From Candidatus Electrothrix yaqonensis (lineage in GTDB: Bacteria > Desulfobacterota > Desulfobulbia > Desulfobulbales > Desulfobulbaceae): DNA of 32,000 nt. Both the position numbers and the translations under genes were made by a program. Positions 1,294-30,762 of the stretch are shown here, in pieces. The stretch spans positions 540,001 through 572,000 of the forward strand of contig CP178758.1 in the NCBI GenBank assembly GCA_047651235.1. Reading direction: 5' to 3'. Each line of letters begins with the position of its first letter. The first letter of the stretch is position 1. The notes below the pieces were generated by a model. It ran no database searches. It worked only from the letters and a program-made list of their open reading frames with translations, and was not told the DNA's origin.

Positions 1294-1391
1294 AGGATCG
1301 GCCATGCCCTGATTGATTATCCGGGCAGGGTGCGAACCGGGCATAATCGTTATGGTGCAGGGGGATGGAACGGGTGGTGGGTAATCCCGTT

Positions 1392-1416: not shown

Positions 1417-1442
1417 ATATTCTGGGTTGCGCCTTGCAGGAA

Positions 1443-2423: not shown

Positions 2424-2473
2424 GCCCTGGGTGCCCGCGCCTGTACCGTTTTTCTTACCGCCCTTTTTTCTGC

Positions 2474-2634
2474 CTTTTGATACCCGATGAACGATCCTTT
2501 TGGTACTCGATAAACGATCCTTTTGATACCCGATGAATGGTTCAGATTACGGGCGTAGAATACATTACTCTACGCCCGATAAATGATCCTTTTGATACTC
2601 GATAAATGATCTGTTTGATACCCGATGAATTTTT
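2474..2634. repeat. Iteron-like array: five 23-bp direct repeats plus one partial unit, split by a 10-bp-stem hairpin
   Basis: Units: 2474-2496 cttttgatacccgatgaacgatc; 2497-2519 cttttggtactcgataaacgatc; 2520-2542 cttttgatacccgatgaatggtt; partial 2575-2588 cccgataaatgatc; 2589-2611 cttttgatactcgataaatgatc; 2612-2634 tgtttgatacccgatgaattttt. Hairpin: CGGGCGTAGA(2550-2559)-atacattac-TCTACGCCCG(2569-2578). Four units contain GATC. Confidence 0.85.
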
Positions 2635-2769
2635 GTTGGATCGGGGTGTGATGTGGAGGGTGAGGGGAAGCTGTCAGGATTTGAACATGTGACTACGGCC
2701 TGTAATCCGTATGGCTGCGGGGTTAGATTTTGGGGTGTGATACTGTGATATCGCCATGATTACTTTTTA

Positions 2770-2797
2770 TTGACTTTTTCAATTCAACATGTATCTT
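2770..2797 (+). promoter_or_regulatory. Candidate sigma70-type promoter for lipoprotein gene 1
   Basis: TTGACT (2770-2775), 16-nt spacer, TATCTT (2792-2797). The block tttttattgactttttcaatt resembles the block upstream of lipoprotein gene 2 (tttttcttgacttacaatt). Confidence 0.3.
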
Positions 2798-2832
2798 TGG
2801 TAAATTAAAATTGCTGGTGTTTATATTAGGGA

Positions 2833-2868
2833 TCTTTCCCTTATTTATTATCTTTCCCTTATTTATTA
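2833..2868. repeat. Perfect 18-bp tandem duplication
   Basis: tctttcccttatttatta occurs at 2833-2850 and again at 2851-2868, directly upstream of the SD (aaggagg) of the 2888 gene. Confidence 0.9.
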
Positions 2869-2887
2869 TTCAAGGAGGAAAAAAAAT

Positions 2888-3541
2888 ATGAAAAAGCTCC
2901 GATTAAGCTTTGTCTTCGTACTGTTCGCTTTGTCGCTCGGTTTGTTAGCATCGTGCGGCAGTTTAACCAACACTGTTCTCCAACAAACAGAAAAAGCTTT
3001 CCGACAAGCAGAAGAAGCAGAGGCAAGAAAAACATTGGAGAGACCGGAAAACTTGAAAAAGGTTGATACTGAGCCGGTTGAAGTCAAGGGGCTTTTTAAA
3101 GATCCTACCAGAGCTATTGCAGCACTTAAGAAAAAGGTCGGTGGCGACAAGGTTATGGCCATCAAACTTCTTATCTATCCGACATTCATAACCTTGGAGA
3201 TACAGGATCAAAATAAAAAAGAGAATGTTGACGCTTATGAATATAAGAACGGATTGGCGTCAGGGCCGGTTCCGGTGAAGCTGATAGGAAATAGCGACCA
3301 AAACACGATCGACGCGAATACGTTCAATCTCGACGAATGCGACTTTACCAAAGTTCCTTTTATGGTGAGAGACATTCAAGAGCGGTTTCAGCTCGAAAAC
3401 GAAGAGGTGACACTTGTATCCTTGGAGAGAAATCTTCCTTTTTCGGACGAAGTTCAATTTCGAGTATATGTGGATGGGACGCGAAAGGACGGCAGTATAA
3501 CCTACGACAAGAAAGGGAATATAATGAAGGTGTGGAGATAA
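2888..3541 (+). CDS. Lipoprotein of unknown function
   Basis: 217-aa ORF with SD aaggagg 7 nt upstream. Signal peptide MKKLRLSFVFVLFALSLGLLASC has the lipobox LLAS-C. The gene is AT-rich relative to its flanks. I recognise no family. Confidence 0.8.
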   Translation: MKKLRLSFVFVLFALSLGLLASCGSLTNTVLQQTEKAFRQAEEAEARKTLERPENLKKVDTEPVEVKGLFKDPTRAIAALKKKVGGDKVMAIKLLIYPTFITLEIQDQNKKENVDAYEYKNGLASGPVPVKLIGNSDQNTIDANTFNLDECDFTKVPFMVRDIQERFQLENEEVTLVSLERNLPFSDEVQFRVYVDGTRKDGSITYDKKGNIMKVWR

Positions 3542-3606
3542 ATCAACTGTCAGGAAGCTTCTTTGTCCCTAAATTTTACGGGTAAAGTTAATGTGTACTA
3601 GATCAT

Positions 3607-3710
3607 ACTTGATCTGACAGTAGCCGGGTACGTGTTTAGCGCGTCACCCGGTTTCTTATTTGTTCGCCCCCCATCACTGCGCAGTCTAATTTCAAGGGAG
3701 GTGTGATACC
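3607..3710. repeat. Copy R1 of a ~105-bp intergenic module (terminator hairpin plus conserved boxes)
   Basis: Aligns with 4833-4942 at roughly 85 percent identity by eye. Shared sequence: acttgatctgaca ... ccgggtacgtg...acccggtttcttatttg ... catcactgcgca.tct.atttcaag.gaggtg. Confidence 0.8.
3624..3662 (+). terminator. Rho-independent terminator after lipoprotein gene 1
   Basis: Stem CCGGGT-ACGTG (3624-3634) pairs with CGCGT-c-ACCCGG (3640-3651). It is followed by tttcttatttg. Confidence 0.65.
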
Positions 3711-3746
3711 TTTAAGTTTTTTTGTTTCTCCCGCAATATATTTTTC

Positions 3747-3776
3747 TTGACTTACAATTATGTCGTTTTGTATTGT
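3747..3776 (+). promoter_or_regulatory. Candidate sigma70-type promoter for lipoprotein gene 2
   Basis: TTGACT (3747-3752), 18-nt spacer, TATTGT (3771-3776). Confidence 0.3.
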
Positions 3777-3837
3777 GTCTCTCGTAGAAGATATCTTACG
3801 GTAGTTTATGTTGAAAAAAACGGAGAGAGAGGGGGAT

Positions 3838-4197
3838 ATGAAGGAAGTGCGCTGTTATGATTACCAAGGGACTGAATATAGATTATATGGATTGAACATA
3901 AAAAAAATCGTATGGTTTTTCTTATTGGGATTTTCTGTTCTTAATTTCGGGTGCGCTCGATATGAATGGGTTAATCCTCATGTAAGAAAAGGTAGTGAAC
4001 AGTTTATTACTGATGAAAATTTATGTGATCAGAAGGCACTGGAAACACCAACGATTAAAACCGATGTTGATTGTGTCCGTAGGGTTGAAAAAAAATGTGT
4101 GCAATTTGTCCCTCGCACATACACTGTAAAAAATACCGAACTATTTGAAGCCTGTATGCAGGGAAAAGGATATAGGAGGCAGCGAGTAGAAGAGTGA
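3838..4197 (+). CDS. Small putative lipoprotein of unknown function
   Basis: The ORF is open from ATG 3808. ATG 3838 is preceded by gagagagaggggg (SD-like). An internal hydrophobic segment KKIVWFFLLGFSVLNFGC is followed by Cys (lipobox-like), so a later TTG start at LNIKK is also possible. The C-terminus is FEACMQGKGYRRQ. The start codon is uncertain. Confidence 0.6.
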   Translation: MKEVRCYDYQGTEYRLYGLNIKKIVWFFLLGFSVLNFGCARYEWVNPHVRKGSEQFITDENLCDQKALETPTIKTDVDCVRRVEKKCVQFVPRTYTVKNTELFEACMQGKGYRRQRVEE

Positions 4198-4217
4198 TGG
4201 GGCGATGAAACTTGCTA

Positions 4218-4318
4218 AGGAATGAGTCTCTAATAACTGTCGCTTTTTGGGGTAGCAATGCCCGTCATAGCGTGCGTCTCGGAAAGACAAAGGGGAAAGT
4301 TATTTCTGACTCATTCCT
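4218..4318. repeat. Inverted repeat enclosing ~79 nt between lipoprotein genes 2 and 3
   Basis: AGGAATGAGTC (4218-4228) and GACTCATTCCT (4308-4318) form perfect 11-bp arms. The interior contains small hairpins (e.g. GTCTcggaaAGAC). Confidence 0.7.
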
Positions 4319-4373
4319 AACGATAGGACAACTTAAGATTAATGTTCAAGGAGAAAGGAGAATATACCCGTTA

Positions 4374-4817
4374 ATGAAAACACGTAATATACTTTCCTGT
4401 TTCTTGTTTTTGGCAATCTTCTTGGCGAGTTGTAGCTATAAACAATTAAAAACTTCGGAAAATTTAATAAATGAAATTACGAGAGCTTTATCTAAACCAG
4501 TAAGTTCTTCATTAGCAATCAAAGAAGAGGTAGAAGCACAAATCATTTTCAGTGCTCCTTATGCTATAAGAAACAATGAACGGTACCTCGTTAGGAATCT
4601 TGGCCCAAGGTTGGTTGCTCAAATATCAGACATCTCCACCGAGAAGAACGGTATCCATTTTTTTATAATTAATCATGGACAAATAACCCATTATGAAAAA
4701 TGGATAAATCCAGCGATCACCTTTAACGGTTATTATCTCACCAAAATAAAACCATCATCACGTAAAATAGAATTTATCATACAAGATAAAATATTGGAGA
4801 AAATAATTGTTAAATAA
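4374..4817 (+). CDS. Lipoprotein of unknown function
   Basis: ATG 4374 is preceded by gagaaaggag. Signal peptide MKTRNILSCFLFLAIFLASC has the lipobox FLAS-C. The 54-codon extension to 4212 in the ORF track lies over the inverted-repeat element and has no signal peptide. Confidence 0.75.
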   Translation: MKTRNILSCFLFLAIFLASCSYKQLKTSENLINEITRALSKPVSSSLAIKEEVEAQIIFSAPYAIRNNERYLVRNLGPRLVAQISDISTEKNGIHFFIINHGQITHYEKWINPAITFNGYYLTKIKPSSRKIEFIIQDKILEKIIVK

Positions 4818-4832
4818 TCTGTAGTAGTTCAG

Positions 4833-4942
4833 ACTTGATCTGACAATTTGACCGGGTACGTGTACGTGCTTAGCACGTAACCCGGTTTCTTATTTGCCCC
4901 CTCCATCACTGCGCACTCTGATTTCAAGAGAGGTGCGCCACC
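4833..4942. repeat. Copy R2 of the ~105-bp intergenic module
   Basis: See R1 (3607-3710). R2 directly abuts RHS fragment A and supplies the non-RHS tail and stop codon of that minus-strand ORF. Confidence 0.8.
4851..4896 (+). terminator. Rho-independent terminator after lipoprotein gene 3
   Basis: ACCGGGT (4851-4857) pairs with ACCCGGT (4880-4886). Inner stem is ACGTGC (4864-4869) / GCACGT (4873-4878). It is followed by ttcttatttg. Confidence 0.65.
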
Positions 4943-5747
4943 GAAAGAGATAGGTTCCGCACCATAATGGTATCGCTCTTCGTTGCCGTCCGGGTACTCC
5001 ATCCTGATCAGGCACAGGTCATCATCATAATGATGGACATGGGCATTGCCGTAGGCATCCGTGACCGTGGTCTTTCCGTCCTCGTAACTGAAGCTGTAGG
5101 ATTCGCTCTCGCCCACGATCTGCTCAGTAACCCGGTATTCGTCATCGTAGCTGTTGCGCACCAAGGGATGCCCCTTGGCTGAGATAATCTCCGTCATCTG
5201 GCCCAGATCATCGTATTGATATGCAGTGCGGTTGCCCCTGCCGTCGATAAAGGCGGTCAGCAGGCCGTCCTCGTACTCGTATTGCAGGGTGATGTCTTCC
5301 GGCAAACGGGCCTCAATGATCTGACCGTCATCATTCAGGGTGAACTCCACCCGCCGTCCGGCAGCGTTCTCTAAGGCGGTCAACTTGTCACCGTCATAGA
5401 ACAGATGAACGGCATTGCCGTTGCGGTCGATCAGAGCAGTCAGGTGGCCGTCGCTGTCAAAGCGTTTTTCTTCTGAGGCACAGCCGCAGTCCGCATCCCG
5501 CATGACATACTCATCCCCTTCCCTGCTGATCACATCATGGGTGCCGGGCGAGGCTGAGACATACTGAGAGCCGGATTTCTTGAAGTTGGCCGTATGGCCG
5601 TCCGGGTAGAGGATCTGCACGCCCTCGAAGGTCGGGATTTTGTAGAATCGATCGCTATCCTTAGGGGAAGCCAAATGGGACGCGCTCTTGCAGAATCGGG
5701 TTCTTTTCTGTACAGTGCCTTATCGTTCCTTTTACCCGGAAAACAGC

Positions 5748-18046: not shown

Positions 18047-20011
18047 TTACTTCTGTTTCTTCTGCCCGTCAATCCACCAAGTATAGAGCAGGCTGTAGGG
18101 GTTGTAATACACCGGCAGTTTTTTCGGTCGGTTGAATTTCGCTGCAAAGGCCACCCGATGATAGGCCAGGTACCAGTTGGGCACCACGTAATAGCCGTAC
18201 CAGAGCACCCGATCCAGCGCCTTGCAGGCTGCTGTCAGTTCGTCCTGATGTTCGGCATAGATAATTGAATCAACCAGGCTGTCTACCACCGGTGACTGCA
18301 CTCCGGCCAGATTGCCGGAACCGTTGCTGGAAGCAGCAGCAGCCGACCACATATCCCGCTGTTCATTGCCCGGCGACTGAGACTGCCCGAACACGGTCAC
18401 CACCATATCATAATCAAAACTTTTGATCCGATCCGTGTACAGGGCCGCATCGATTGTCCGGTAGCTTGCCTTGATCCCCAGTTTGGCCAGATTCTTGACA
18501 TACGGCGCCATGACCCGCTCAAAGGAGGGGCTGGACAGCAGGATCTCAAACTCAAACGGCGTACCATCCTCTGAAGTCAGCACCCCGTTTTTCACCTTCC
18601 AGCCCTGTTCGGTCAGCAGCTTTTTGGCCTGCCGGAGATTGCCGCGCAGACTGTTCGGCGGGCTGGTGGTCGGTGGAGTCAGCGGCGTTGTGAAGACCTC
18701 CGGCGGAATTTTTCCGGGATATTTTTCTTTGAGCGGTTCAAGGAGCTTCAGCTCTGCCGGGCTGGGCAGACCGGTTGCTGCCAGCTCGGAATTGCTGAAA
18801 TAGGAGTCCGCTCTGGTGTACTGATCAAAAAACAGAGCGCTGTTCGTCCATTCAAAATCAAAGGCCAAGCCGAGCGCCTGCCGCACCGTGTGGTCGCTGA
18901 ACAGCTTACGCCGATTATTGAAGACAAATCCCTGCATTCCTGCATTGTTTTTATGGGGAAAGGTCTGTTTGACCAGCTCGCCGCTCTCAAAGCGACGGCC
19001 GACTAGGTCGCGCTGCCACTGCTTGGCGATATTTACCCACATAAAATCAAAATCCCCGGCCTTGAAGGCCTCCAGACTGACGATCTGATCTTTAAAGTAT
19101 TTGATGGTGATGGTCTCGAAATTAAACATCCCCTTGCGGCAGGGATGATCAGCCGCCCAGTAATCAGGGTTCCGCTCATAGGTGATTGCTTTTCCTGGAT
19201 TGATTTCCTTGATGATATACGGCCCGCTGCCCACCGGCGGCAGCAGAGGATCACCCTTGCTGTCTGCCCCGAAGCCGTGCTGTTCATAAAATTTCTTGTT
19301 CAGCACCGGCAGCTGGGCGGCAATCATGTGCAGTTCGCGGTTAGGACGGGCAAAAAGGAAACGGATTTTCCCCTGCTCCTTATCCACAATTTCTGCGCTG
19401 CGAATGTCCTGATAATACATCTGATAAAACGGATGACATTGTTCGCTTTTCAGAGTTTCCAGCGAGTACTTGACATCCTCCACAGTTACCGGGCTGCCGT
19501 CGGAGAACCGCGCTTTTTCGTTCAGGGTGAAGAGCACCGAGAGTTTATCCTCGGCCAGCTCGATGTCCTTGGCAAGCAGGCCGTAGGCGGCAAAGGGTTC
19601 GTCCAGACTGCCCGCAGCCAGTGTTTCAAAAATCAGGCTTCCCTCAATGCCGAACAGCCCGAATGCCTCGGTGCCTTTCAGGGTAAAGGGATTCATCTTG
19701 TCAAAGCTGCCCAGAGCATGCAGGGTCAGGTCTCCGCCTTTTCCCGCAGCAGGATTGACATAATCAAAATGACTGAACCCGGCAGGATATTTCAGTTTGC
19801 CGTCAATGGAAACGCCGTGTGCTGCGTACAGGACAGCGGGCAGGGCAAGGTAGGTAACAACGGAAAAAAGCACTGCCGACAAAAAAAAGAGTCTTTCTGC
19901 AGCAAGTCGCTGTTTCGAGGGCGGCATTTCTGCTGCACATGCCGTATCATTTTTCAGCCTGTTCCCGTACTTCCTGTCTTGCCTGTAGTTCTTGTTTGTT
20001 TTCATACTCAT
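18047..20011 (-). CDS. ABC transporter substrate-binding protein, family 5 (peptide/YejA-like)
   Basis: 654-aa ORF with a size and sequence pattern typical of family-5 solute-binding proteins and a hydrophobic signal segment LFFLSAVLFSVVTYLALPAVLYA. The start may instead be ATG 19927 (MPPSKQ...). Confidence 0.8.
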   Translation of the reverse strand: MSMKTNKNYRQDRKYGNRLKNDTACAAEMPPSKQRLAAERLFFLSAVLFSVVTYLALPAVLYAAHGVSIDGKLKYPAGFSHFDYVNPAAGKGGDLTLHALGSFDKMNPFTLKGTEAFGLFGIEGSLIFETLAAGSLDEPFAAYGLLAKDIELAEDKLSVLFTLNEKARFSDGSPVTVEDVKYSLETLKSEQCHPFYQMYYQDIRSAEIVDKEQGKIRFLFARPNRELHMIAAQLPVLNKKFYEQHGFGADSKGDPLLPPVGSGPYIIKEINPGKAITYERNPDYWAADHPCRKGMFNFETITIKYFKDQIVSLEAFKAGDFDFMWVNIAKQWQRDLVGRRFESGELVKQTFPHKNNAGMQGFVFNNRRKLFSDHTVRQALGLAFDFEWTNSALFFDQYTRADSYFSNSELAATGLPSPAELKLLEPLKEKYPGKIPPEVFTTPLTPPTTSPPNSLRGNLRQAKKLLTEQGWKVKNGVLTSEDGTPFEFEILLSSPSFERVMAPYVKNLAKLGIKASYRTIDAALYTDRIKSFDYDMVVTVFGQSQSPGNEQRDMWSAAAASSNGSGNLAGVQSPVVDSLVDSIIYAEHQDELTAACKALDRVLWYGYYVVPNWYLAYHRVAFAAKFNRPKKLPVYYNPYSLLYTWWIDGQKKQK

Positions 20012-20043
20012 TCTCTCTTTTTTCTTTTTTGGTTCGGTTTCTT

Positions 20044-20847
20044 TTATGATCTCCGGACTGGTACGGTTTGTACCATCGTACCATAATGCACCTGTTCCAG
20101 AAACAGGCCGCAGGGAGGGGCTGTCGGTCCGGCCTGTTGCCGGTCTTTGGCCGCCAGAATCGCGGCAAACTGTTCGCAGGTCAGGCGGCCCGTTCCTACC
20201 CAGAGCAGGGTTCCCGCCAGATTACGCACCATATGCCGGAGAAAGCCGTCCCCGCTGAAGCGGAAGAAAAAATGCTCCGGCCGGGCCGGGTCAGTGATGC
20301 ATTCGGCCCGGAATAGGGTGCGCACTGCTCCCCGGCCTGTGGTTCTGCTGCGGTCACGGGAACCGACCGCCTCAAAGCTGGAAAAATCATGGCTGCCCAC
20401 CAGCAGATCCAGGCAGGGCTGCACCCTGTCCGGCGCAAAGCCGCAGGGAAGATGCGTCCGGTAGAGCCGTTCCGCAGGCTGCTGAATGGAGCCGGTGAAA
20501 AAATCATAATGGTAGGTCTTGCCCTTTGCATCGTAGCGGGCGTGGAAATCCGGGCCAGCCTCTGCAGCATCCAGAATACGAATATCCTTGGGCAGCATGG
20601 AATTCAGGGCCTTGGTGAAAGTCTCGGCAGGCATCCCGGCGCAGGTCCTGAAGTTGGCTGTCATGCCCTCGGCATGCACCCCGGCATCCGTCCGGCCCGC
20701 CCCGTTGACCTCAACCGCAGCCTTGGTGATGATGCCGAGTTTTTCCTCCAGCATTGCCTGAATACTCGGACCGTTGCGCTGCCGCTGCCAGCCCTTGTAG
20801 GCAGTGCCGTCATAGGCGATGAGCAGGCGGATATTCCGCTGTTTCAT
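20044..20847 (-). CDS. truA: tRNA pseudouridine(38-40) synthase TruA
   Basis: IAYDGTAYKGWQRQ, the catalytic GRTDAGVHA, and FLRHMVRNL. Confidence 0.93.
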   Translation of the reverse strand: MKQRNIRLLIAYDGTAYKGWQRQRNGPSIQAMLEEKLGIITKAAVEVNGAGRTDAGVHAEGMTANFRTCAGMPAETFTKALNSMLPKDIRILDAAEAGPDFHARYDAKGKTYHYDFFTGSIQQPAERLYRTHLPCGFAPDRVQPCLDLLVGSHDFSSFEAVGSRDRSRTTGRGAVRTLFRAECITDPARPEHFFFRFSGDGFLRHMVRNLAGTLLWVGTGRLTCEQFAAILAAKDRQQAGPTAPPCGLFLEQVHYGTMVQTVPVRRS

Positions 20848-20853
20848 GGAAAA

Positions 20854-21894
20854 CTAGGGAAAAAACGGGGCATGCAGCAGGCCGCAGGTTTCGTCGAATC
20901 CGTTCATCAGGTTCATATTCTGGATAGCCTGTCCGGAGGCCCCTTTGGCGATATTGTCAATGGCGGACATCACAATGACCCGGTTCGTGCGGGGATCAAC
21001 TTTGATGCCGATATCGCAGCAGTTACTGCCCCGAACATGCTGGGTGGCCGGGAAGGAACCCGCAGGGCAGACCCGGACGAAAGGCTCGGCCGCATAGATT
21101 CTCTCGTACAGTTCCTGGATATCCTGTTCTGTGGTTCCGGAGTTCAACGGCGCATACATGGTACTGAGGATACCACGCGAGATAGGCAGCAGATGCGGGG
21201 TAAAGGAGATGGTTACCGGTGTGCCTGCCAGCACGGACAGTTCCTGCTCGATCTCCGGGATATGGCGGTGGCTGCCCCCGACCTTGTAGGCCCGGAAACC
21301 GTCCGTGACCTCGCAGAACAAGGTGCCCACATTGGCGGCACGCCCGGCGCCGGAGGTACCGGACTTGGAGTCGATGATCAATCCGGCCGGGTCGATCAGT
21401 TTTTCCCACAGCAGCGGGGCCAACCCCAGAATGATGGAGGTCGGGTAGCAGCCGGGATTAGCGGTCAGCCGGGCTTTTTGTACCTGGTCCCGGTACAGCT
21501 CCGGCAGACCGTAGGCTGCCTCGGCAATTACCTCCGGGCAGGAATGCGCCTGATACCACTGCTCGTACACGGCAGCATCCCGGATGCGGAAGTCAGCACT
21601 GAGGTCCACCACCTTTTTGCCTGCTTCCAGCAGGGCGGGCACCAGATCCATTGCTGTCTTATGCGGCACAGCAGCAAAAAAGAAATCCGCCCGTTTGACC
21701 AGTTCCTCCGGCCCGAGGTTTTCGCAGATCAGATCAACCCGTTTGCGCAGGTTGGGAAAGACTTCCGAGAGCGGCCTGCCCGCATATTGTCTGGAAGTGG
21801 CAACGGTCAGTTCGACTTCCGGGTGGGCGGAAAGAATGCGGGCCAGTTCAACGCCGGTGTAACCGGAGGCCCCTATGATTCCTACTTTCAGCAT
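20854..21894 (-). CDS. argC: N-acetyl-gamma-glutamyl-phosphate reductase
   Basis: [18 protein letters not shown], the active-site region NPGCYPTS, and 346 aa in length. Confidence 0.95.
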
Positions 21895-22373
21895 GATTTT
21901 TTTCCTGTATGATTTCCTGTAGGAGTAAAAATAATCGCGGCGTTCAATCGGCAGCCGGTTATACTACTATACTGCCGAGTGTTCAAAAACATACAGGATG
22001 CTACCGGGAAAGGCAATTGTTAAGAAGCTGTTTTCACCTCCTCCGTTTCAGGATAAACTTCCTGTCTCAGCGCAACGACTCACAAAGGCAGGAGGTAAAA
22101 AATGGAAGTCCCATAAAGAGATAAAAACTTTTCAGAAATCATCTCGCGAAACAATTCTGTTGTGTCCGGAGCCTATCTCCCGATATCTGAACTCAAGTAT
22201 TACGAAAAGAGCGTCCTTCAGAGAAGGATTAATATTTTTGATATATATCATTAGGTTATATTCTCATTATCGAACTCAGGTTGCCGGAAAATAACGTTCA
22301 AAAAGGTGACCATCGCAACTTTTTTGCTGGTTATTTTACTGCCACGGTGTAATATTGGTCTGTTCAGAATGAG

Positions 22374-22409
22374 CCGTTTCCTGTTCTCTTCAGTACAGGA
22401 AACGGTTTT
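22374..22409 (+). terminator. Orphan intrinsic terminator or attenuator in the cytochrome upstream region
   Basis: Perfect 11-bp stem CCGTTTCCTGT (22374-22384) / ACAGGAAACGG (22395-22405), a 10-nt loop, then TTTT. There is no plus-strand gene upstream of it. The cytochrome ATG is 147 nt downstream. Confidence 0.55.
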
Positions 22410-22555
22410 CATCAGCAGGATTGACTTTGAATGTTCAGAAATAAAAGGGGGAAGAAATTTCAGCTTTCAGAAAAGGAGGTGGTATTGAGGTGCAATGATC
22501 AATTACTCGGGCCTGATATTACAATAATTTTTATTCAACATGGAGGAAAACACGT

Positions 22556-23545
22556 ATGAAAGCAGTGAAGCTGCTGTTCCGGACCTGCATGATACTCGGC
22601 TGTATCATGTTGTTCTGTCAGCCTGTTGCGGCAGAGACCGCAAAACAGGAACCGACAGATACGGCCGATCAACATGCTGGCATCGTTGAAAAGGAAGCAG
22701 AGACCATTGATGAACTCGTCGAAATACTGGACGAGAAGAAATGTGCTGAGTGCCACCCCGAAATCTACAAAGAGTGGAAAAAATCTTGGCATGCCCAGTC
22801 TGTTGTCTCTCCCGGTGCTATAAAAGGTATTCATAATTTCTTCGCCATCGGTCTTCCCAAAGAATGGAAAAAACCGATAACCAAGGCCGAGGTGATGAAA
22901 TGTTATGACTGCCATGCCCCGGTGATCCAGTATGCTTCTGAAGAGTTAGCCGTTGAAATAGCTAACATGGTCATTACGGCCCATAAGGAAAAAGGCAAAC
23001 CTGCCGCTGAAAAGGCGGAAAAAGAGTTGTCCAAGCTGAGTGTCGGTTGTGTTTCCTGTCATAACCTGAAGGCGATCACCGTTGCCCGCGGCCTGCGCGG
23101 TGACCCCAAAAAAGGTGCCATCTACGGCCCCACAGGGGCTGACAGCGGCGGTGCCCATGAAACCATAGAGACTGTGGACATCACCCGTTCAATTTTCTGT
23201 ATGCAATGTCACGGTAAGTACAAGGCACCGGACGGAGAAACCATCCAGTGCAACACGCTTTCCGGCAGCTTCCAGAACGCCTACGGCAACCTTGGGGGGA
23301 GCAAAACCTGTCAGTCCTGCCACATGGAAAAGGGCGGCAAAAACGGCAAGAAAAGCCATCTTTTCCCCGGCGGACATGACCTGGATATGGTGAAAAAAGG
23401 CCTCGGACTTGAGGTCAGTTTCACTCAGTATCGTCACCTGCCCGGCAAAATCCCAGGCGTGAAAAACGACAAAGCCTGGGTACCCAGTGCTGTGGTCACC
23501 GCCTTTGTCAAGAACAAGGCGGGACATCGTATCCCGGACGGCTGA
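22556..23545 (+). CDS. Periplasmic five-heme c-type cytochrome (N-terminal part, ends at in-frame TGA)
   Basis: SD ggagg upstream, and signal peptide MKAVKLLFRTCMILGCIMLFCQPVAA. Five CxxCH motifs are present: CAECH, CYDCH, CVSCH, CMQCH, CQSCH. The ORF ends ...NKAGHRIPDG-TGA (23543-23545). Confidence 0.9.
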   Translation: MKAVKLLFRTCMILGCIMLFCQPVAAETAKQEPTDTADQHAGIVEKEAETIDELVEILDEKKCAECHPEIYKEWKKSWHAQSVVSPGAIKGIHNFFAIGLPKEWKKPITKAEVMKCYDCHAPVIQYASEELAVEIANMVITAHKEKGKPAAEKAEKELSKLSVGCVSCHNLKAITVARGLRGDPKKGAIYGPTGADSGGAHETIETVDITRSIFCMQCHGKYKAPDGETIQCNTLSGSFQNAYGNLGGSKTCQSCHMEKGGKNGKKSHLFPGGHDLDMVKKGLGLEVSFTQYRHLPGKIPGVKNDKAWVPSAVVTAFVKNKAGHRIPDG

Positions 23546-23560
23546 CTGTGGTCAGGCAAA

Positions 23561-23878
23561 GTGGTCCTGGATGTGACCGCACGAAATCTGGAAGAAAAAG
23601 ACCCTGAAAAACAAATCCTCTACTCCGGCCAAAAAACTTGGTTTGAAATCGGTGTTGATATGGACCGGGATATGCGCTACGGTGCCTGGCAGATCAAGGA
23701 AATCATTGATCTGACCCTGCCGCCGCAGCAAACCCAGAAGGTGGAGCACCTTATGCACTTTGATACAGATACCGAAGAGGTTGAGATCGAAGTCAAGCTG
23801 TCCTATTTCATCAGCGGCGGAAAAGGTGATGTTCTCTTTACCGAGAAGAAACAGTTCAGTTATAACATTGACTGGTAG
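23561..23878 (+). CDS. Probable C-terminal continuation of the cytochrome (same frame, no own SD/ATG)
   Basis: It is in the same frame as 22556..23545, and only TGA plus five sense codons (LWSGK) separate them. The ORF-track start is a GTG without SD. The translation VVLDVTARNLEEKDPEKQILYSG...EVEIEVKLSYF looks like a beta-rich domain. Confidence 0.6.
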   Translation: MVLDVTARNLEEKDPEKQILYSGQKTWFEIGVDMDRDMRYGAWQIKEIIDLTLPPQQTQKVEHLMHFDTDTEEVEIEVKLSYFISGGKGDVLFTEKKQFSYNIDW

Positions 23879-23973
23879 CTGAGCTGCCGATCAGAATCAT
23901 CCCGGATGTCCGGTAAATACCACGGCATCCGGGATGCCGGTCTCGCTGAACAAAGAACTGAACACAAAAGCAC

Positions 23974-24001
23974 AAAAAAAAGCCGGGCTGTTGCAGCCCG
24001 G
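23974..24001 (-). terminator. Rho-independent terminator of the 24077..24346 gene
   Basis: On the minus strand, CCGGGCTG-caa-CAGCCCGG (24001-23983) is followed by eight T (A-run 23974-23981 on plus). Confidence 0.75.
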
Positions 24002-24076
24002 TCCTATCAGAAGGAGGAGTGAAAAAAATTCCCAACTGCCCGGCATCATCGCTCCATATGCCGGATTTTTATCTGC

Positions 24077-24346
24077 TCAACATGCTGTTCCAGCATCCTG
24101 GACTGAATGGCTTTCTGCATATAATTCCCTGAAACGTTCCGGTATCATCCTGCCGCGCATCGGGTCCAGCTTGGCTTTGTACAGCTCATTTATTGTTTCC
24201 TGCTCGTTTTTAGTAGCGATTTTATCAACGAGCCTGAAAATTTCCGGATTCACAGTGAGTGTACATGCCGATCCCAAGGTCATCAAAAAACTTGCAACAG
24301 CTGTCCCGACTATAATTTTGTATCTAATATCTTTAAAAAAGTTCAT
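24077..24346 (-). CDS. Small exported protein of unknown function
   Basis: 89-aa ORF with a strong SD GGAGGAGG 5 nt upstream. The N-terminal hydrophobic segment IIVGTAVASFLMTLGSAC is signal or lipobox-like. It has its own terminator. Confidence 0.65.
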   Translation of the reverse strand: MNFFKDIRYKIIVGTAVASFLMTLGSACTLTVNPEIFRLVDKIATKNEQETINELYKAKLDPMRGRMIPERFRELYAESHSVQDAGTAC

Positions 24347-24635
24347 TGTTCCTCCTCCGTGCTATATTTTATGAAATAGTGCAGCACTGCATATCCTTCA
24401 TACTGCCAGCAGTTTTTTAGTAAGAGTAATCATTATCTCTTTATTTTCAAGTTAGCACAAAAGAAAAGATGAGTCAAAGGATAAAACTGTTTTATATCAA
24501 TAATTTATTGTATAAATATTTTTATACAAGTACAAAAAACAATATTCTGAATGCTGAAAGCTGGGGAATAAAAATTGAGAAAGGGCAATATCGACTTATC
24601 GCGTCTTCGTTCCGGCAGCACCCGCAAGCATTTTC

Positions 24636-24664
24636 TTGACAGACTGTGGGGAGCCCAATATGCT
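24636..24664 (+). promoter_or_regulatory. Candidate sigma70-type promoter of pepN
   Basis: TTGACA (24636-24641), 17-nt spacer, TATGCT (24659-24664), about 52 nt upstream of the pepN ATG. Confidence 0.4.
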
Positions 24665-24716
24665 GACCTGAAGCCCGAACATTTCCTAATTTCCCCCTAC
24701 ATTCCCCACAGCCAAC

Positions 24717-27380
24717 ATGGTACATAATACTGCAACAAAATACCTGAAAGATTATAGCCCGTATCCCTTCACCATCTCCACTGTTCACCTGCGGGTGGAG
24801 CTGGATCCGGCACAGACCCGGGTCACCGCCCGCACTGCCATACAACGCAATCCGCAGGCCGAGGATATGCAGGCCCCATTGGAGCTGGACGGCGAGCATC
24901 TGGAGCTGGTTTCCGTTATCGTTGACGAACGGGAACTGCATCAGGACGAGTATATTTATGACGGCGCTGTATTGCGCATTACCGAAGTGCCGGATCAGTT
25001 TCACCTGGAGATCGAAACCCTGATCAATCCGGCAGCCAACACTGCCCTGGAAGGGCTGTACCTCTCCTCTGGCAACTACTGCACTCAATGCGAGGCCGAG
25101 GGCTTCCGCCGCATCACCTGCTGGCCGGACCGGCCTGATGTCCTGGCCGTGTTCACCACCACCATCATCGGCCCGCAGGAGAGCTGCCCGGTCATGCTCT
25201 CCAACGGCAACCTGATCGAACAGGGTACATTGGATGAAGGCCGTCATTTCGCCATCTGGCATGATCCTTTCCCGAAGCCGAGTTATCTCTTTGCCCTGGT
25301 GGCCGGGAAACTGGTCCGCATTGAAGATGCCTTTACCACCATGTCCGGTCGCGAGGTTGCCTTGCATATTTACGTGGAGGAACGGAACCGGGAAAAATGC
25401 GACCATGCCATGCAGTCGGTGAAAAAAGCCATGCGCTGGGATGAAGAGGTCTTCGGCCTGGAGTACGATCTGGATACTTACATGATCGTGGCTGTGGATG
25501 ATTTTAATATGGGCGCAATGGAGAACAAAGGGCTGAATATTTTTAACTCAAAATACGTGCTGGCCCGGCCGGAGACCGCAACCGACCAGGATTACGAGGG
25601 CATTGAAGGGGTCATCGGACACGAGTATTTTCATAACTGGACCGGCAACCGGGTGACCTGCCGGGACTGGTTTCAGCTCAGCCTCAAGGAGGGCCTGACC
25701 GTGTTCCGTGATCAGGAGTTTTCTGCGGATATGGGGTCCAGGGCCAAGCAGCGCATTGAGGACGCCAATATCATACGCAGCTTCCAGTTCCGGGAAGACA
25801 GCGGCCCGATGGCCCATCCGATCCGGCCTGCCTCCTATGTGGAGATCAATAATTTCTACACCCTTACAATCTATAATAAAGGGGCGGAAGTAATCCGGAT
25901 GCTCCACACCCTGCTGGGCGCAGACGGTTTCCGCAAGGGCATGGACCTTTATTTTGAACGCCATGACGGCCAAGCCGTGACCTGCGATGATTTTGTCCAG
26001 GCCATGCAGGATGCAAATCAGGATGCTAATGGCTTTGATCTGGGCCGATTCAGGCACTGGTACAGTCAGGCCGGAACGCCGGAGCTGACCGTTGCGCAGA
26101 AGTATAATGCAGAGAAACAGGAATATACTTTGACCATCAGCCAGTCCTGTCCGTCCACGCCGGAACAGGAGAGCGCGGACAAACAGCTCTTTTTCATGCC
26201 CGTCAAAATCGGCCTGCTGGACAGGCATGGCCAGGATATGCCGTTACAGCTCCAGCATGGAGAGCAGCCGGAGAACGGGGTGTTCATTCTGCATCAGGCA
26301 GAGCAGCAGTTCCGTTTCAGAGGGATCATGGAGAAGCCGGTCTTGTCCTTTAACCGGAATTTTTCTGCTCCGGTCAAGGTGCAATCGGATCTGGATGAGG
26401 AGGCCCTGGCCTTTCTCATGGCCCATGATACCGATTCCTTCAACCGCTGGGATGCAGGCCAGCAGCTCGGTCTGCAATATATGCTGGCCGGAATTACTGC
26501 CCGGCAGGAGGAGCAACAGGTCGTTGTGCCGAAATTATTCCATCAGGCATTTGACCGACTGCTCTGCGATGAGCAAAGTGACCCGGCCTTGCTTGCTGCT
26601 GCTTTGATCCTGCCTTCTGAAAACTGGATCAGTCAGCAGCTGGCGGTCATTGACCCGGAGGCGGTCTTCGGGGTGCGTCAGGCATTCCGTTGGCAACTGA
26701 GCATCACGCACCGGGATACCCTGTATGAAAACTATTCCGCCTTGGGCAGCGAAGACCCGTATCAGTATTCTGCAAAAGAGGCCGGACGACGGGCTTTCCG
26801 CAACTGCTGCCTTGCCTATCTGCTGGTCCCGGAACCGGGAGAGGGGGCTTCGAAAGACGTACTTGAAACCGGTATGGAGCAGTACCGGCAGGCCGATAAC
26901 ATGACCGATATGGCAGCGGCTCTGACAGCGGTGGTCAATGCGGACCGGCAGGCCGGAGATGAGCTGCTGGCGGATTTTTATACCAGATGGCAGAATGATC
27001 CCCTGGTGGTGGATAAATGGCTCGTCCTCCAGGCCACCTGCACTCTGCCCGGAACCTTGGGGCGGGTAAAAGAATTGCTTCGGCACCCGGCCTTCAGCAT
27101 GAAAAACCCCAACAAGGTGCGCTCTCTGGTCGGGGCCTTCGGCAGCAATCTGCAGCAGTTCCACGCCCCGGACGGCAGCGGCTACAGCTTTCTGGCCGAC
27201 TGCATTATGGAGCTGGACCCTGTCAACCCGCAGACAGCAGCCCGGCTGGTCACTCCACTCACCCTGTGGAAACGGTATGATGCTGACCGGCAGGAGCTGA
27301 TAAAAAGGCAGCTTGAGCGGATTGCTGCGTTGCCTGGTCTGTCCCGTGATGTAGGGGAGGTAGTGAAGAAGAGTTTATAG
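24717..27380 (+). CDS. pepN: Aminopeptidase N (M1 family)
   Basis: GAMENKGLNIFN exopeptidase motif and zinc motif HEYFHNWTGNRVT ...x18... LKEG. It is 887 aa. Confidence 0.95.
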   Translation: MVHNTATKYLKDYSPYPFTISTVHLRVELDPAQTRVTARTAIQRNPQAEDMQAPLELDGEHLELVSVIVDERELHQDEYIYDGAVLRITEVPDQFHLEIETLINPAANTALEGLYLSSGNYCTQCEAEGFRRITCWPDRPDVLAVFTTTIIGPQESCPVMLSNGNLIEQGTLDEGRHFAIWHDPFPKPSYLFALVAGKLVRIEDAFTTMSGREVALHIYVEERNREKCDHAMQSVKKAMRWDEEVFGLEYDLDTYMIVAVDDFNMGAMENKGLNIFNSKYVLARPETATDQDYEGIEGVIGHEYFHNWTGNRVTCRDWFQLSLKEGLTVFRDQEFSADMGSRAKQRIEDANIIRSFQFREDSGPMAHPIRPASYVEINNFYTLTIYNKGAEVIRMLHTLLGADGFRKGMDLYFERHDGQAVTCDDFVQAMQDANQDANGFDLGRFRHWYSQAGTPELTVAQKYNAEKQEYTLTISQSCPSTPEQESADKQLFFMPVKIGLLDRHGQDMPLQLQHGEQPENGVFILHQAEQQFRFRGIMEKPVLSFNRNFSAPVKVQSDLDEEALAFLMAHDTDSFNRWDAGQQLGLQYMLAGITARQEEQQVVVPKLFHQAFDRLLCDEQSDPALLAAALILPSENWISQQLAVIDPEAVFGVRQAFRWQLSITHRDTLYENYSALGSEDPYQYSAKEAGRRAFRNCCLAYLLVPEPGEGASKDVLETGMEQYRQADNMTDMAAALTAVVNADRQAGDELLADFYTRWQNDPLVVDKWLVLQATCTLPGTLGRVKELLRHPAFSMKNPNKVRSLVGAFGSNLQQFHAPDGSGYSFLADCIMELDPVNPQTAARLVTPLTLWKRYDADRQELIKRQLERIAALPGLSRDVGEVVKKSL

Positions 27381-27436: not shown

Positions 27437-30388
27437 GTGAACATCCAGGAACACGACCCGCATTTCAAGATCTTCCACGAGCTGATGGCTTTCAGGGTGC
27501 AGGAGATTCTGCTGGTCTCCAGCCCCTACGACGCCTATATCCTGGAAGAAGACGGGTCCATGACCGCCCGGATCATCAACGAGTACCACGGTCTGAACCT
27601 TTCCCGGCCGCCCCGCATCACCCGTGCTGCTGATGCCGGGCAGGCAATGGCGCTGCTGGCGGAGCGGCATTTTGATCTGGTGGTGACTATGGCCCATCTC
27701 GGAGGTATGGCCGGGTGTGAATTCGGCCGGCAGGTCCGCAGGCAGTACCCGGATATCCCGGTCATTCTGCTCACCCATTCTGTGCGGGACGCAGTGAGTC
27801 AGGCCGGTTTTTTCAGTGAACCCTGTTTTTACAACAGCTACACCTGGTCCTGCGATTCCTCCATCATGCTGGCCATTGTCAAAAATGCCGAGGATCAACG
27901 CAACGTTGATGCGGACACGGAAAAGGCGATGGTCCGGGTGGTCCTGCTGGTGGAGGACTCCCCTCTGCACCGCTCCGTTCTCCTGCCCATGCTTTACGAA
28001 GAGCTCGTCCAGCAGACCCTGGCCGTGCTGGATGAGGGACTCAATGAGCACCACCGGCTGCTCAAGATGCGGGCGCGGCCCAAGATCCTCACGGCAGCCA
28101 ACTATGAAGAAGCCCTGTACCTTTTTCAGCGCTACCGGCCGTATATCTTTTCCGTGATGTCTGACGTCCGTTTTCCGAAAAACGGGCAGGAATGCGCTAC
28201 TGCCGGGGTTGAACTGCTGGCGGAAATCCGCTCCCGAATCCCTGATCTGCCCCTGCTCATGCTGAGTGCGGAAAGGGAAAACAGAGACCTGGCCCTGCAG
28301 ATTCCGGCGGTGTTTGTTGAAAAAAATCCACGGACCATGCACCGGGAACTGCATGATTTCTTTATCCAGTATTTAGGGTTCGGCGATTTTGTCTTCCGTC
28401 TGCCTGATGAAAGAGAGGTTGGCCGGGCCTCCACCCTGTACGAATTTGAACAGCGGCTCGCAACCGTGCCGGAGGACTCCCTGTTTTATCATGCCCGGTG
28501 CAATCATTTTTCCAACTGGGTCATGGCCAGAACTGAGGTCGGGCTGGCAGCCCGGCTGCATAAAGAACAGGTACAGGACATCACGGACTGTAACGCTCTG
28601 CGCAGAGATCTGATCACCAAGGTGCATGAGCTGCGCCGTACCCGGCAGCAGGGCGTGATGACCCGTTTTTTTGCCAGAGAATACGACCCGGACCTGACCG
28701 AGTTTACCCGCATGGGTCGGGGTTCGGTGGGCGGCAAGGCCAGAGGAATCGCCTTTATGGCTTCGGAGCTGCATCGGGCGCAATATCTGCAGTCGATCCT
28801 GATGGAGAGCGAGGTCAGAATTCCGCGCACCTGCGCGATCGCTGCTTCCGGATTCCGTGATTTCATCCGCCTCAACAACCTGCAGCCGGATGACAACGCC
28901 TCTGACGCGGAGATCGAACAACGCTTTCTTGCCGGAAACATGCCGGACTGGCTGCTGGCTGACCTGCAGGGGTATCTGGAAAAAACGCAGTATCCCCTGT
29001 CCGTGCGTTCCTCCAGCCTGCTGGAGGATGCCCGCTACCGGCCTTATGCCGGGCTGTACCGTACCTGTATGCTGGAAAATGCCACGCCGGACTGCACTGT
29101 CCGGCTGAACCTGCTTGTCCGGGCCGTCAAGCAGGTCTACGCCTCAACCTGGTTTGAAGGGCCGAGATCATACTCCCGCTCCATCGGCCAGACCAGAGAA
29201 GATGCCATGGCGGTGATTATCCAGCAGAGCGTGGGCAGACAGTACGGCGAGTTTTTCTTTCCGGCAGTTTCCGGCGTGGCCCAGTCGTATAATTATTATC
29301 CGATTGATCCGATGCAGGCTGAGGACGGCATTGTCCATCTGGCAGCAGGATTCGGCCAGACCGTGGTGGAGGGCGAACAGAGCCTGCGTTTCTGCCCGGC
29401 ATATCCGCAGCATATGCCGCAGTTTTCCACAGTGGACGACATTCTGAACAATGCTCAGCGGTATCTGTACTGCCTGCAGTACAGCAGCGGAAAGCACACT
29501 GACCATACTAATAATTCTGACGATACCGGCAGCAGGGTTGTTCGGCGTGCACTTGATGCAGCCGGGGCAGCAGAGCCTTTGCGCCGACTCTGTTCAACCT
29601 ATATCCCGGAAGAACACCGGATTCGTGATGCAGACCTGCGCGGCCCCAAGATCCTGACCTTTGCCCCGATCCTGAAATATGAGGTCTATCCGCTGGCGAC
29701 CTTGCTCAGGGAGCTCTTGGCCCTGGGCAAAGAAGGGCTGGGCTGCGAAGTGGAAATTGAGTTTGCCGTTGATCTGGCAGAAAACCCGGCAGACTCGGTC
29801 TTTTATTTCCTCCAGATTCGTCCTATTGTAGTCAGCGGTGCAACCGGACGCCTGCAGATAACCGGACAGGAGAAAGAAGCGGCCTTTCTGTATTCCAAGC
29901 AGGCACTGGGGTTCGGCCTGCACGAACAGATGCGGGATATCCTTTTTATCCGACCGGATGCCTTTGACCGGGCCGTCACCCGTGAGATTGCTGCGGAAAT
30001 CGGGAAAATAAACCGCACCCTGCATCAGGAGGAACGGCCGTACCTGCTCATCGGCCCGGGCCGATGGGGAACCGCTGACCCCTGGTTAGGTATTCCGGTG
30101 CAGTGGCGGGATATCTCCGGGGTCGGTGCCATTGTTGAGTTGCAGAATGATGGGGCTGTCCGGGCCGAAGCCTCCCAGGGATCGCATTTTTTTCAGAACA
30201 TCACCTCCCTCGGCATCCCCTACCTCATGGCGGAAAATACTGCTGTGGACTGGGATTGGCTGCTGGAGCAGGAGGCGCAGACCGGCCGCTATATCAGCCA
30301 TGTCCAGCTGGACAGTCCCTTCACCCTGAGGGTGGACGGAGAGCGGAATGAGGCGGTTGCTTTTGTCCGGAGGAATGGCAGTGCCTGA
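27437..30388 (+). CDS. Receiver-like + receiver + PEP/pyruvate-binding (PPDK_N ATP-grasp) domain protein
   Basis: First domain: ILLVSSPYDAYILEEDG ... DLVVTMAHLGGMAG, with Thr at the phospho-acceptor position. Second domain: LLVEDSP ... FSVMSDVRFP ... LLMLSAE ... FVEKNP, with a canonical Asp/Ser/Lys set. PPDK_N-like motifs follow: GGKARGIAFM, SVRSSSLLEDA, AGLYRT, YASTWF, MAVIIQQSVG. I saw no phosphohistidine swivel motif. The start is GTG. Confidence 0.8.
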   Translation: MNIQEHDPHFKIFHELMAFRVQEILLVSSPYDAYILEEDGSMTARIINEYHGLNLSRPPRITRAADAGQAMALLAERHFDLVVTMAHLGGMAGCEFGRQVRRQYPDIPVILLTHSVRDAVSQAGFFSEPCFYNSYTWSCDSSIMLAIVKNAEDQRNVDADTEKAMVRVVLLVEDSPLHRSVLLPMLYEELVQQTLAVLDEGLNEHHRLLKMRARPKILTAANYEEALYLFQRYRPYIFSVMSDVRFPKNGQECATAGVELLAEIRSRIPDLPLLMLSAERENRDLALQIPAVFVEKNPRTMHRELHDFFIQYLGFGDFVFRLPDEREVGRASTLYEFEQRLATVPEDSLFYHARCNHFSNWVMARTEVGLAARLHKEQVQDITDCNALRRDLITKVHELRRTRQQGVMTRFFAREYDPDLTEFTRMGRGSVGGKARGIAFMASELHRAQYLQSILMESEVRIPRTCAIAASGFRDFIRLNNLQPDDNASDAEIEQRFLAGNMPDWLLADLQGYLEKTQYPLSVRSSSLLEDARYRPYAGLYRTCMLENATPDCTVRLNLLVRAVKQVYASTWFEGPRSYSRSIGQTREDAMAVIIQQSVGRQYGEFFFPAVSGVAQSYNYYPIDPMQAEDGIVHLAAGFGQTVVEGEQSLRFCPAYPQHMPQFSTVDDILNNAQRYLYCLQYSSGKHTDHTNNSDDTGSRVVRRALDAAGAAEPLRRLCSTYIPEEHRIRDADLRGPKILTFAPILKYEVYPLATLLRELLALGKEGLGCEVEIEFAVDLAENPADSVFYFLQIRPIVVSGATGRLQITGQEKEAAFLYSKQALGFGLHEQMRDILFIRPDAFDRAVTREIAAEIGKINRTLHQEERPYLLIGPGRWGTADPWLGIPVQWRDISGVGAIVELQNDGAVRAEASQGSHFFQNITSLGIPYLMAENTAVDWDWLLEQEAQTGRYISHVQLDSPFTLRVDGERNEAVAFVRRNGSA

Positions 30389-30642: not shown

Positions 30643-30762
30643 AAGCAGGTGCTGTGCTTTCCGGTTGATGACGGAAAGCTGAAAAAGCCACAACCGCCGT
30701 GAGGCGGTGTCGGAAAGTCACGGGTCTCCGCAGGGGAGACGGCCGGGCTGCCTGCTTTTTAT
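30643..30762 (+). promoter_or_regulatory. Structured 5' leader (unclassified; riboswitch-like or attenuator)
   Basis: Outer pairing AAGCAGG (30643-30649) / CCTGCTT (30751-30757) encloses three hairpins: CTTTCCG(30657-30663)/CGGAAAG(30672-30678), ACCGCC(30693-30698)-gtga-GGCGGT(30703-30708), and GTCTCC(30724-30729)-gcag-g-GGAGAC(30735-30740). It ends in a T-run at 30756-30760, 28 nt before the ATG at 30788. Confidence 0.45.

Follow-up and report, generated by a model that had tools for sequence, protein, structure and literature searches.

An in-frame UGA in a five-heme cytochrome c gene of Candidatus Electrothrix yaqonensis is very probably a selenocysteine codon

Introduction

Does a TGA that interrupts a cytochrome gene of the cable bacterium Candidatus Electrothrix yaqonensis separate two genes, does it mark a damaged gene, or is it translated? 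The question is raised by a locus on the forward strand of contig CP178758.1 (assembly GCA_047651235.1), of which positions 540,001 to 572,000 were analyzed. This whole stretch of 32,000 nucleotides is called the window, and all positions given below are counted from its first letter. Within the window, an open reading frame (ORF) for a five-heme c-type cytochrome ends in a TGA at 23543-23545, and a second ORF follows in the same frame. An initial annotation, made from the sequence alone, had read the two ORFs as one protein of 440 residues with selenocysteine (Sec) at residue 330. The analysis presented here arrived at the same reading: 22556-23878 (+ strand) is very probably one gene, the product of which would be a secreted c-type cytochrome with five hemes that belongs to the MccSep/ExtKL selenoproteins, the UGA being read as Sec330. 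The feature is real and already known, with a curated NCBI model, the structure and enzymology of the Geobacter protein, and a described cable-bacterial homologue. It does not represent a new kind of system.

MccSep of Geobacter sulfurreducens is encoded by gsu2937-2936 (= extKL) and has long been predicted to be a Sec-containing cytochrome (PMC5877670); the family is named among the known prokaryotic selenoprotein families in a 2026 review (PMC13188914). The protein is one periplasmic polypeptide of 49 kDa with a cleaved signal peptide of 25 residues; 4.9 Fe and 0.96 Se were measured for each subunit, and its Sec peptide VEMTNHAGHSIPDGUPTPNR was found by mass spectrometry (Sci Adv 2026, PMC13510729). 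The crystal structure (PDB entries 9wt8, 9wt9, 9wta, 9wtb and 9wtc) is a homotetramer with a five-heme cap and an immunoglobulin (Ig)-like stem. The ligands of heme 2 are H122 and, on the distal side, C239, the redox partner of Sec; U325 lies at 3.6 Å from the C239 sulfur. MccSep acts as a polysulfide reductase, with a weaker activity toward selenite, and is needed for the respiration of elemental sulfur (S0). Function was lost in the variants U325A, U325C, C239H, R83A and K372A, U325C being nearly inactive. In the same study, 637 homologues were retrieved, 394 of them requiring UGA read-through, and the Cys forms were nested inside Sec clades; the analysis of the selenocysteine insertion sequence (SECIS) was a fold of the UGA plus 30 nt only (PMC13510729).

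In the cable bacterium Electrothrix, a small pentaheme cytochrome (sPHC) has been described as structurally homologous to ExtKL; it is reported to have a "two-gene structure", an Ig-like domain stemming from the downstream gene, a predicted catalytic heme and no porin gene near, and it has been proposed as a possible nanowire-forming cytochrome (EMBO Rep 2025, PMC11976967). Selenocysteine is not mentioned in the main text of that paper, and a full-text literature search on selenocysteine in cable bacteria returned nothing relevant. The product of the gene analyzed here is most likely the same protein as sPHC.

Results

One open reading frame is interrupted by a single TGA

Re-translation confirmed the arrangement described in the initial annotation. 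The first ORF (22556..23545) comprises 329 codons, runs through the residues ...NKAGHRIPDG with the motif GHRIPDG, and is terminated by the TGA at 23543-23545. The five codons CTG TGG TCA GGC AAA follow directly, and the second ORF (23561..23878) then begins with a GTG in exactly the same frame, at an offset of 1005 nt. Translated throughout, 22556-23878 consists of 440 codons with one stop inside, the TGA, and a TAG at its end (23876-23878). The chance that about 110 codons stay open past a stop is roughly 0.005; the comparative evidence presented below is far stronger than this figure.

Gene callers split the locus into a gene for 329 amino acids (aa) and a separate 105-aa gene that starts at GTG 23561. 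The claim of the initial annotation that the downstream piece lacks initiation signals was true in part: no ATG is present at its start and no Shine-Dalgarno motif is conserved, but it begins with the GTG that is used by the gene callers. The accessions of the neighboring genes, XOF34206 (argC) and XOF34208 (pepN), leave space for exactly one protein between them, which could be the full-length selenoprotein or a small ORF at 24077-24346.

In a single sequence, a lone stop in an otherwise intact gene is just what a recent nonsense mutation, and hence a pseudogene, or a mistake in sequencing or assembly would look like, and a nonsense mutation and a sequencing error had been kept as alternatives in the initial annotation. 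A Logan re-assembly of run SRR31704081 is 100% identical to positions 19556-25672 of the window (6.1 kb) and carries the TGA. Sixty loci, distributed over several phyla, share this TGA; their proteins are 46-87% identical to that of the window. The domain past the TGA remains in frame, and its residues W332, R374, K381, D385 and Y417 are invariant in 73 of 73 sequences. We therefore give next to no credence to a mutation or an error.

The aligned codon is TGA or a cysteine codon, never another stop

Among the 120 best database homologues (57-91% identity), 119 are called as ending at ...GHR[IV]PDG. Because such an end fits a conserved gene end as well as a conserved Sec codon, the DNA of 74 genome loci was fetched; codon counts refer to the window and 73 of these loci, as the remaining one stops short of the site. 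The codon after GHxxPDG was TGA in 61 cases (the window and 60 loci) and TGC or TGT in 13 cases, while TAA and TAG did not occur. The frame always continued past the site, staying open for 101-118 codons in the loci listed. The TGA types include five Candidatus Electrothrix genomes, many other Desulfobulbales, Thermodesulfovibrio and other Nitrospirota, as well as Thermodesulfatator and one metagenome-assembled genome of the Chloroflexota. The TGC/TGT types include Magnetobacterium, Magnetominusculus, Caldimicrobium and others.

These results bear on the explanation that the TGA at 23543-23545 is a true stop and that a 105-residue protein is started independently at GTG 23561. Such an arrangement is what the automatic calls of 329 aa and 105 aa imply, it agrees with the "two-gene structure" published for the Electrothrix homologue of ExtKL (PMC11976967), and GTG 23561 was found to be invariant in 60 of 60 relatives. 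However, the stop at the site is a TGA in every case, without a single TAA or TAG, and 13 homologues have Cys there within one uninterrupted ORF. The linker between the TGA and the GTG has the invariant amino acids L-W-S-G-K in the relatives, whereas the third positions of its CTN, TCN and GGN codons have entropies of 1.47, 1.59 and 1.24 bits. With fixed amino acids and free degenerate positions, the linker is therefore translated in this frame. No Shine-Dalgarno motif is conserved; the AGG at 23554-23556 needs an A at 23554, which is present in only 28 of the 56 distinct Sec-type sequences that made up the nucleotide alignment. The invariance of GTG 23561 is explained by its being part of the SECIS stem described below. 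Finally, the Geobacter product is a single 49-kDa polypeptide that contains Sec (PMC13510729). Two independent genes are thus extremely improbable, and where the sPHC paper treats the two pieces as two genes, the evidence here points to one Sec-containing polypeptide of an enzyme family.

The immediate context of the UGA is conserved as well. The base that follows it (+4) is C in 56 of 56 distinct Sec-type sequences. UGA-C is the weakest context for termination by release factor 2 (RF2) in E. coli. The Gly codon that precedes the UGA is GGC in 58 of 60 relatives (0.24 bits), although it is four-fold degenerate. This preference could result from the pairing of C23542 with G23556 in a mini-hairpin around the UGA, or equally from an effect of the P-site codon context on Sec insertion.

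The read-through protein belongs to the MccSep/ExtKL family

For protein searches, Cys was put in place of residue 330. Only generic multiheme matches were obtained with Pfam. In contrast, the NCBIfam model NF040886 ("multiheme c-type cytochrome (seleno)protein ExtKL"), an equivalog model with a curated cutoff of 250 bits, was matched with 411.6 bits, and the match extends over residues 35-429 of the protein and 20-412 of the 423 profile positions and thus crosses the TGA. A phmmer search against the PDB retrieved the MccSep entries 9wt8, 9wta and 9wtb (E = 1.5e-34), and the alignment to 9wt8 has 123 bits over 347 residues. It runs through residue 392 of 440, so that residues 330-392 are the aligned part past the Sec site. 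Together with the TGA/Cys column, these two matches upheld the proposal of a 440-residue protein with Sec330.

In the 9wt8 alignment, residue 330 falls on Sec325 of MccSep (X/U325), His120 on H122, Cys232 (codon 23249..23251) on C239 and Lys381 (codon 23696-98) on K372. Lys381 is invariant in 73 of 73 sequences, Cys232 was invariant in 25 homologues, and the heme-2 ligand positions H120 and C232 are invariant in homologues, which is a matter of residue conservation only. The initial annotation had regarded the absence of a nearby Cys in a CxxU motif as weakening the Sec assignment. This argument does not apply to the family, as the partner of Sec325 in MccSep is the sequence-distant C239 (PMC13510729) and its counterpart Cys232 is conserved.

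The five CxxCH heme-binding motifs of the read-through protein are all invariant in the protein alignment. They are CAECH at residues 63-67 (22742..22756; C63, C66 and H67 invariant), CYDCH at 116-120 (22901..22915), which includes the His120 aligned to 9wt8, CVSCH at 165-169 (23048..23062), CMQCH at 215-219 (23198..23212) and CQSCH at 252-256 (23309..23323). The UGA-Sec codon (23543..23545) is followed by a C-terminal domain of residues 331-440 (23546..23875), the presumed counterpart of the Ig-like beta-sandwich of MccSep, the fold of which is taken from PMC13510729. At the N-terminus, a Sec-type (secretory) signal peptide is predicted by eye for residues 1-26 (22556..22633): MKAVKLLFRTCMILGCIMLFCQPVAA precedes an E and has a basic n-region and a hydrophobic core, with VAA immediately before the E. 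By analogy with MccSep, the read-through protein is probably located in the periplasm.

The similarities to MccSep thus include the five CxxCH motifs, the site N-x-x-GH-x-[IV]-PDG-U, the heme-2 ligands (His120 and Cys232 here), the Lys residue, a predicted N-terminal signal peptide, the C-terminal domain past the Sec, an in-frame UGA with a hairpin downstream, and also the routine mis-annotation as two genes. Cys-ligated hemes for sulfur-sulfur chemistry are likewise found in TsdA, SoxAX and cytochrome c552 of Thermochromatium tepidum (PMC13510729). In contrast to the protein described here, these have no Sec and have other folds and heme counts; the Thermochromatium cytochrome (PDB 5ze8) was matched only by the N-terminal heme region, residues 49-123 (E = 3e-9).

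In addition, a difference between the Sec and the Cys types was observed at residue 90 (nt 22823-22825). In the Sec-type sequences inspected it is Lys (S-L-K-G or A-I-K-G), while the column holds Asp or Glu in the inspected sequences of the Cys type (SIDSI, SLEGL). The charge of the substrate pocket at this position may covary with the Sec/Cys state.

A conserved hairpin downstream of the UGA is specific for the TGA forms

A hairpin at 23561..23580 (+), GUGGUC(C)-UGGAW-(G)U-GACCGC, emerged as the candidate SECIS element. With positions given by their last two digits, its pairs are G61-C80, U62-G79, G63-C78, G64-C77, U65-A76 and C66-G75, and the optional pair C67-G73 brings the stem from 6 to 7 bp, leaving U74 bulged and the loop UGGAW. 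The minimum free energy (MFE) fold of 23540-23600 consists of this hairpin and of a second one, 23540-57, which contains the UGA (-17.4 kcal/mol, z = -1.96 versus shuffles), and the helix 23561-23580 was recovered independently in the RNAalifold consensus.

Across the alignment, 99.7% of the cells pair in this hairpin, compared with 19-72% for slid controls. The third codon positions within it (23563, 23566, 23569, 23575 and 23578) have entropies of 0-0.13 bits, whereas flanking four-fold degenerate sites, both before the TGA and directly behind it, reach 1.4-1.96 bits, which is near saturation; position 23581, immediately after the stem, has 1.58 bits. The block of frozen third positions thus coincides exactly with 23561-23580. 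Compensatory double changes were found at two pairs (C-G to G-C and U-A to G-U, in L056), and one pair is changed from G-C to G-U, in L058. For the segment +16..+42, the mean MFE was -9.3 kcal/mol (range -8.5 to -12.3) in the 60 Sec-type sequences (59 loci and the window), but only -3.3 kcal/mol, without a common structure, in the 13 Cys-type sequences. From these sequence comparisons it is strongly supported that 23561-23580 is a conserved SECIS hairpin that is specific to the TGA forms and lacking in the Cys-type homologues.

The stem starts 15 nt past the UGA and spans +19 to +38 as counted from the U of the UGA. The fold of the UGA plus 30 nt that was published for Geobacter (PMC13510729) would cut such a stem at +33, so that the element defined here reaches past the segment folded there. 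The distance from the UGA to the apical loop is about 22 nt, and the second loop base is a G. Under the bSECISearch rules reported by Zhang and Gladyshev in 2005, both features appear to lie within the usual range. The element resembles the bacterial SECIS archetype, that of E. coli fdhF, in being a hairpin of the coding region that closely follows the UGA, in its distance of about 22 nt between UGA and loop, in the bulged U and the G of the apical loop, and in the C that comes after the UGA. In contrast to fdhF, its sequence is unrelated and the UGA lies outside the lower stem of 23561-23580, possibly in the separate mini-hairpin at 23541-57.

The initial annotation had drawn another hairpin directly 3' of the TGA and had suggested it as the SECIS, with a lower stem of 23547-52 and 23576-81, an upper stem of 23553-56 and 23566-69, and the loop caaaGUGGU (23557-65). 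It can indeed be drawn as described, yet it is neither the MFE structure of 23540-23600 nor the RNAalifold consensus. Across the relatives, 84.8% of its cells pair, but this high fraction is due to bases that are constrained either by the encoded amino acids (TGG, GG) or as part of the other hairpin. The pair 23548-23580 is broken in 37 of 56 sequences, 23554-23568 in 26 of 56 and 23547-23581 in 19 of 56; no compensatory change was found, and every shuffle equaled the observed scores. The alternative hairpin looks plausible in a single sequence because its 3' arm is common to that of 23561-23580. We regard it as very improbable that the SECIS has this form, and the conserved hairpin is the one at 23561-23580.

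A possible mini-hairpin around the UGA itself (23541..23557, +) was predicted by both RNAalifold and the MFE fold, with the pairs G41-C57, C42-G56, U43-G55, G44-C53, A45-U52 and C46-G51. Its sole paired four-fold degenerate site, 23542, is C in 58 of 60 relatives, while the unpaired sites 23548 and 23554 vary freely. Because most of its bases are under coding constraint as well, the proposal that this mini-hairpin holds the UGA in its stem is tentative. The recoding signal may accordingly have two parts, the mini-hairpin with the UGA and a separate SelB-binding hairpin.

An Rfam scan of the window at gathering thresholds yielded no SECIS family; its only hit was a riboswitch elsewhere, which is described below. 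A terminator scan revealed no canonical terminator on the + strand right after the TGA or the TAG; an inverted repeat is present at about 23923-23939, and a terminator-like site lies on the - strand at 24001-23983.

The standard genetic code applies, and selenium-free read-through is very improbable

A further explanation is a read-through of the UGA that involves no selenium, either after a reassignment of TGA or by a near-cognate tRNA that inserts Trp or Cys. No gene of the Sec machinery is visible in the window and Cys-type homologues exist, as would be expected in this case. Within the window, however, TGA terminates five full-length housekeeping genes, namely recJ, guaA, glk, tsaE and a response-regulator gene, and no in-frame TGA was found in any other confident gene of the window. 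TGA is an ordinary stop in this host, which uses the standard genetic code. In addition, a dedicated RNA hairpin is kept only in the TGA-type genes, and the Geobacter site carries selenium, with U325C being nearly inactive (PMC13510729). Selenium-free read-through is therefore very improbable.

The gene is solitary and its position is not conserved

The selenoprotein gene is solitary, with argC on one side and pepN on the other. The genes upstream of it, argC (XOF34206.1), truA, a gene for an ABC substrate-binding protein and tsaE, are encoded on the opposite strand. Downstream, a small ORF for a lipoprotein-like product, also on the opposite strand, is followed by pepN (XOF34208.1) and a gene for a response-regulator/PPDK_N protein. 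The small ORF (24077-24346, -) encodes 89 aa with a lipoprotein-like N-terminus (..LMTLGSAC..); it had no family match, and gene calling on the Logan contig reports it as a gene.

In the other Electrothrix genomes (five), similarity of 81-86% nucleotide identity is limited to 22463-23874, that is, the gene and about 90 nt upstream. The 6-kb flanks in these genomes had no detectable match, and argC, truA and pepN were not near the gene in any of the fetched loci. The position of the gene is therefore not conserved within the genus Electrothrix. Clustering of the neighbors in the 74 loci did not reveal a widely conserved partner gene, and ARAGORN detected no tRNA-Sec in 60 related loci, a result that is uninformative.

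Two kinds of recurrent neighbors were observed. The 983-aa protein with a response-regulator receiver and a PPDK_N (phosphoenolpyruvate-utilising) domain is encoded at 27437-30388 (+), 3.5 kb downstream of the selenoprotein gene, and homologues of it (58-62% identity) adjoin the mccSep homologue divergently in five Desulfogranum-type loci; it may have a regulatory link to the mccSep homologue. In 10 loci, at least one of them of the Cys type, a multi-pass membrane protein with the motif GGGCASG is encoded about 0.9-2.3 kb upstream on the same strand. By eye, it is a putative sulfur-compound transporter of the YeeE/YedE type.

Further features of the window are located at a distance from the gene. 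A c-di-GMP-I-GGC riboswitch aptamer was detected by Rfam at 30678-30756 (+), with 59.2 bits and thus barely at the gathering threshold of 59 (E = 1e-11). Downstream of the aptamer come a GGGAGG Shine-Dalgarno motif and an ATG at 30789, the start of an ORF that extends to 31837, bears a signal peptide and matched no family in Pfam or NCBIfam. In Geobacter, genes for extracellular electron transfer are under the control of such riboswitches. At the left end of the window, an ORF similar to REP-associated tyrosine transposases (508-1182, -) and fragments of RHS/YD-repeat proteins (1443-2423 and 4829-5674, -) look like the remnants of a polymorphic-toxin locus (508-5674).

Discussion

Taken together, the TGA/Cys column, the match to NF040886 across the TGA, the alignment to 9wt8 and the TGA-specific hairpin make it very probable that 22556-23878 encodes one selenoprotein. 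Several points weigh against this conclusion. The identity to the characterized Geobacter enzyme is only about one third. R83 of MccSep, which is important for activity, is unmatched and meets Ala88; a basic residue is found no closer than Lys90, two positions on, which may stand in for R83. The covariation in the SECIS stem comes from very few variant sequences, mainly L056, so that the main support for the stem are the frozen synonymous sites. None of selA, selB, selC and selD was found in the 32-kb window by ORF families and a tRNA scan; ARAGORN detected no tRNA at all in the window, hence no tRNA-Sec. The Geobacter gene is part of the extHIJKLMNOPQS cluster, whereas the gene described here is solitary, and none of the ext-cluster neighbors (the rhodanese ExtH, the porin ExtI, ExtJ and the ExtM/N cytochromes) is encoded beside it. 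Lastly, the host of MccSep respires sulfur, whereas the cable bacterium described here oxidizes sulfide and does not respire sulfur, so that the physiological substrate and the direction of the reaction are uncertain.

The following mechanism can be proposed. As in bacterial Sec decoding in general, the complex of SelB, GTP and Sec-tRNA(Sec) would dock on the hairpin 23561-80 when the ribosome reaches the UGA and would outcompete RF2; recoding at this site is thus presumed to depend on SelB by analogy. The invariant weak-termination context UGA-C may aid recoding, and tentatively the mini-hairpin around the UGA may do so as well. The product would consist of an N-terminal alpha-helical five-heme domain and a C-terminal beta-sandwich that carries Sec330. 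By homology to MccSep, Sec330 would be placed beside Cys232, the ligand of heme 2; His120 would occupy the opposite side of this heme, and Lys381 would assist. Polysulfide is the presumed substrate, again by analogy: Sec330 would attack it, the chalcogen-chalcogen bond would be cleaved, and the transfer of the sulfur chain to Cys232 would lead to an Se-S(n)-S-Cys intermediate, which electrons arriving through the five-heme chain would reduce to sulfide.

For annotation, these results mean that one selenoprotein of 440 residues should replace a 329-aa cytochrome and a 105-aa hypothetical protein. The same holds more widely, as the public homologues in the big protein collections are almost all truncated at the Sec codon. 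The SECIS is defined comparatively for the sampled clade (Desulfobulbales, Nitrospirota and a few others) as spanning +19 to +38, beyond the 33 nt folded in PMC13510729.

For the biology of cable bacteria, the analysis ties the sPHC of that field to a characterized family of Sec-dependent polysulfide reductases, a link that is absent from the searched text of cable-bacteria papers, and it suggests that Electrothrix carries out sulfur chemistry in the periplasm and needs selenium. We speculate that the cable-bacterial enzyme might not be a respiratory polysulfide reductase but a periplasmic catalyst for the polysulfide or S0 that stems from sulfide oxidation, operating in an oxidative or disproportionating manner and exchanging electrons with the conductive-fibre network, although we consider this rather unlikely at present. 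If it were true, the view of a non-respiratory catalyst would replace that of a "two-gene, possibly nanowire-forming sPHC", and the long-distance electron transport of marine cable bacteria would be selenium-dependent.

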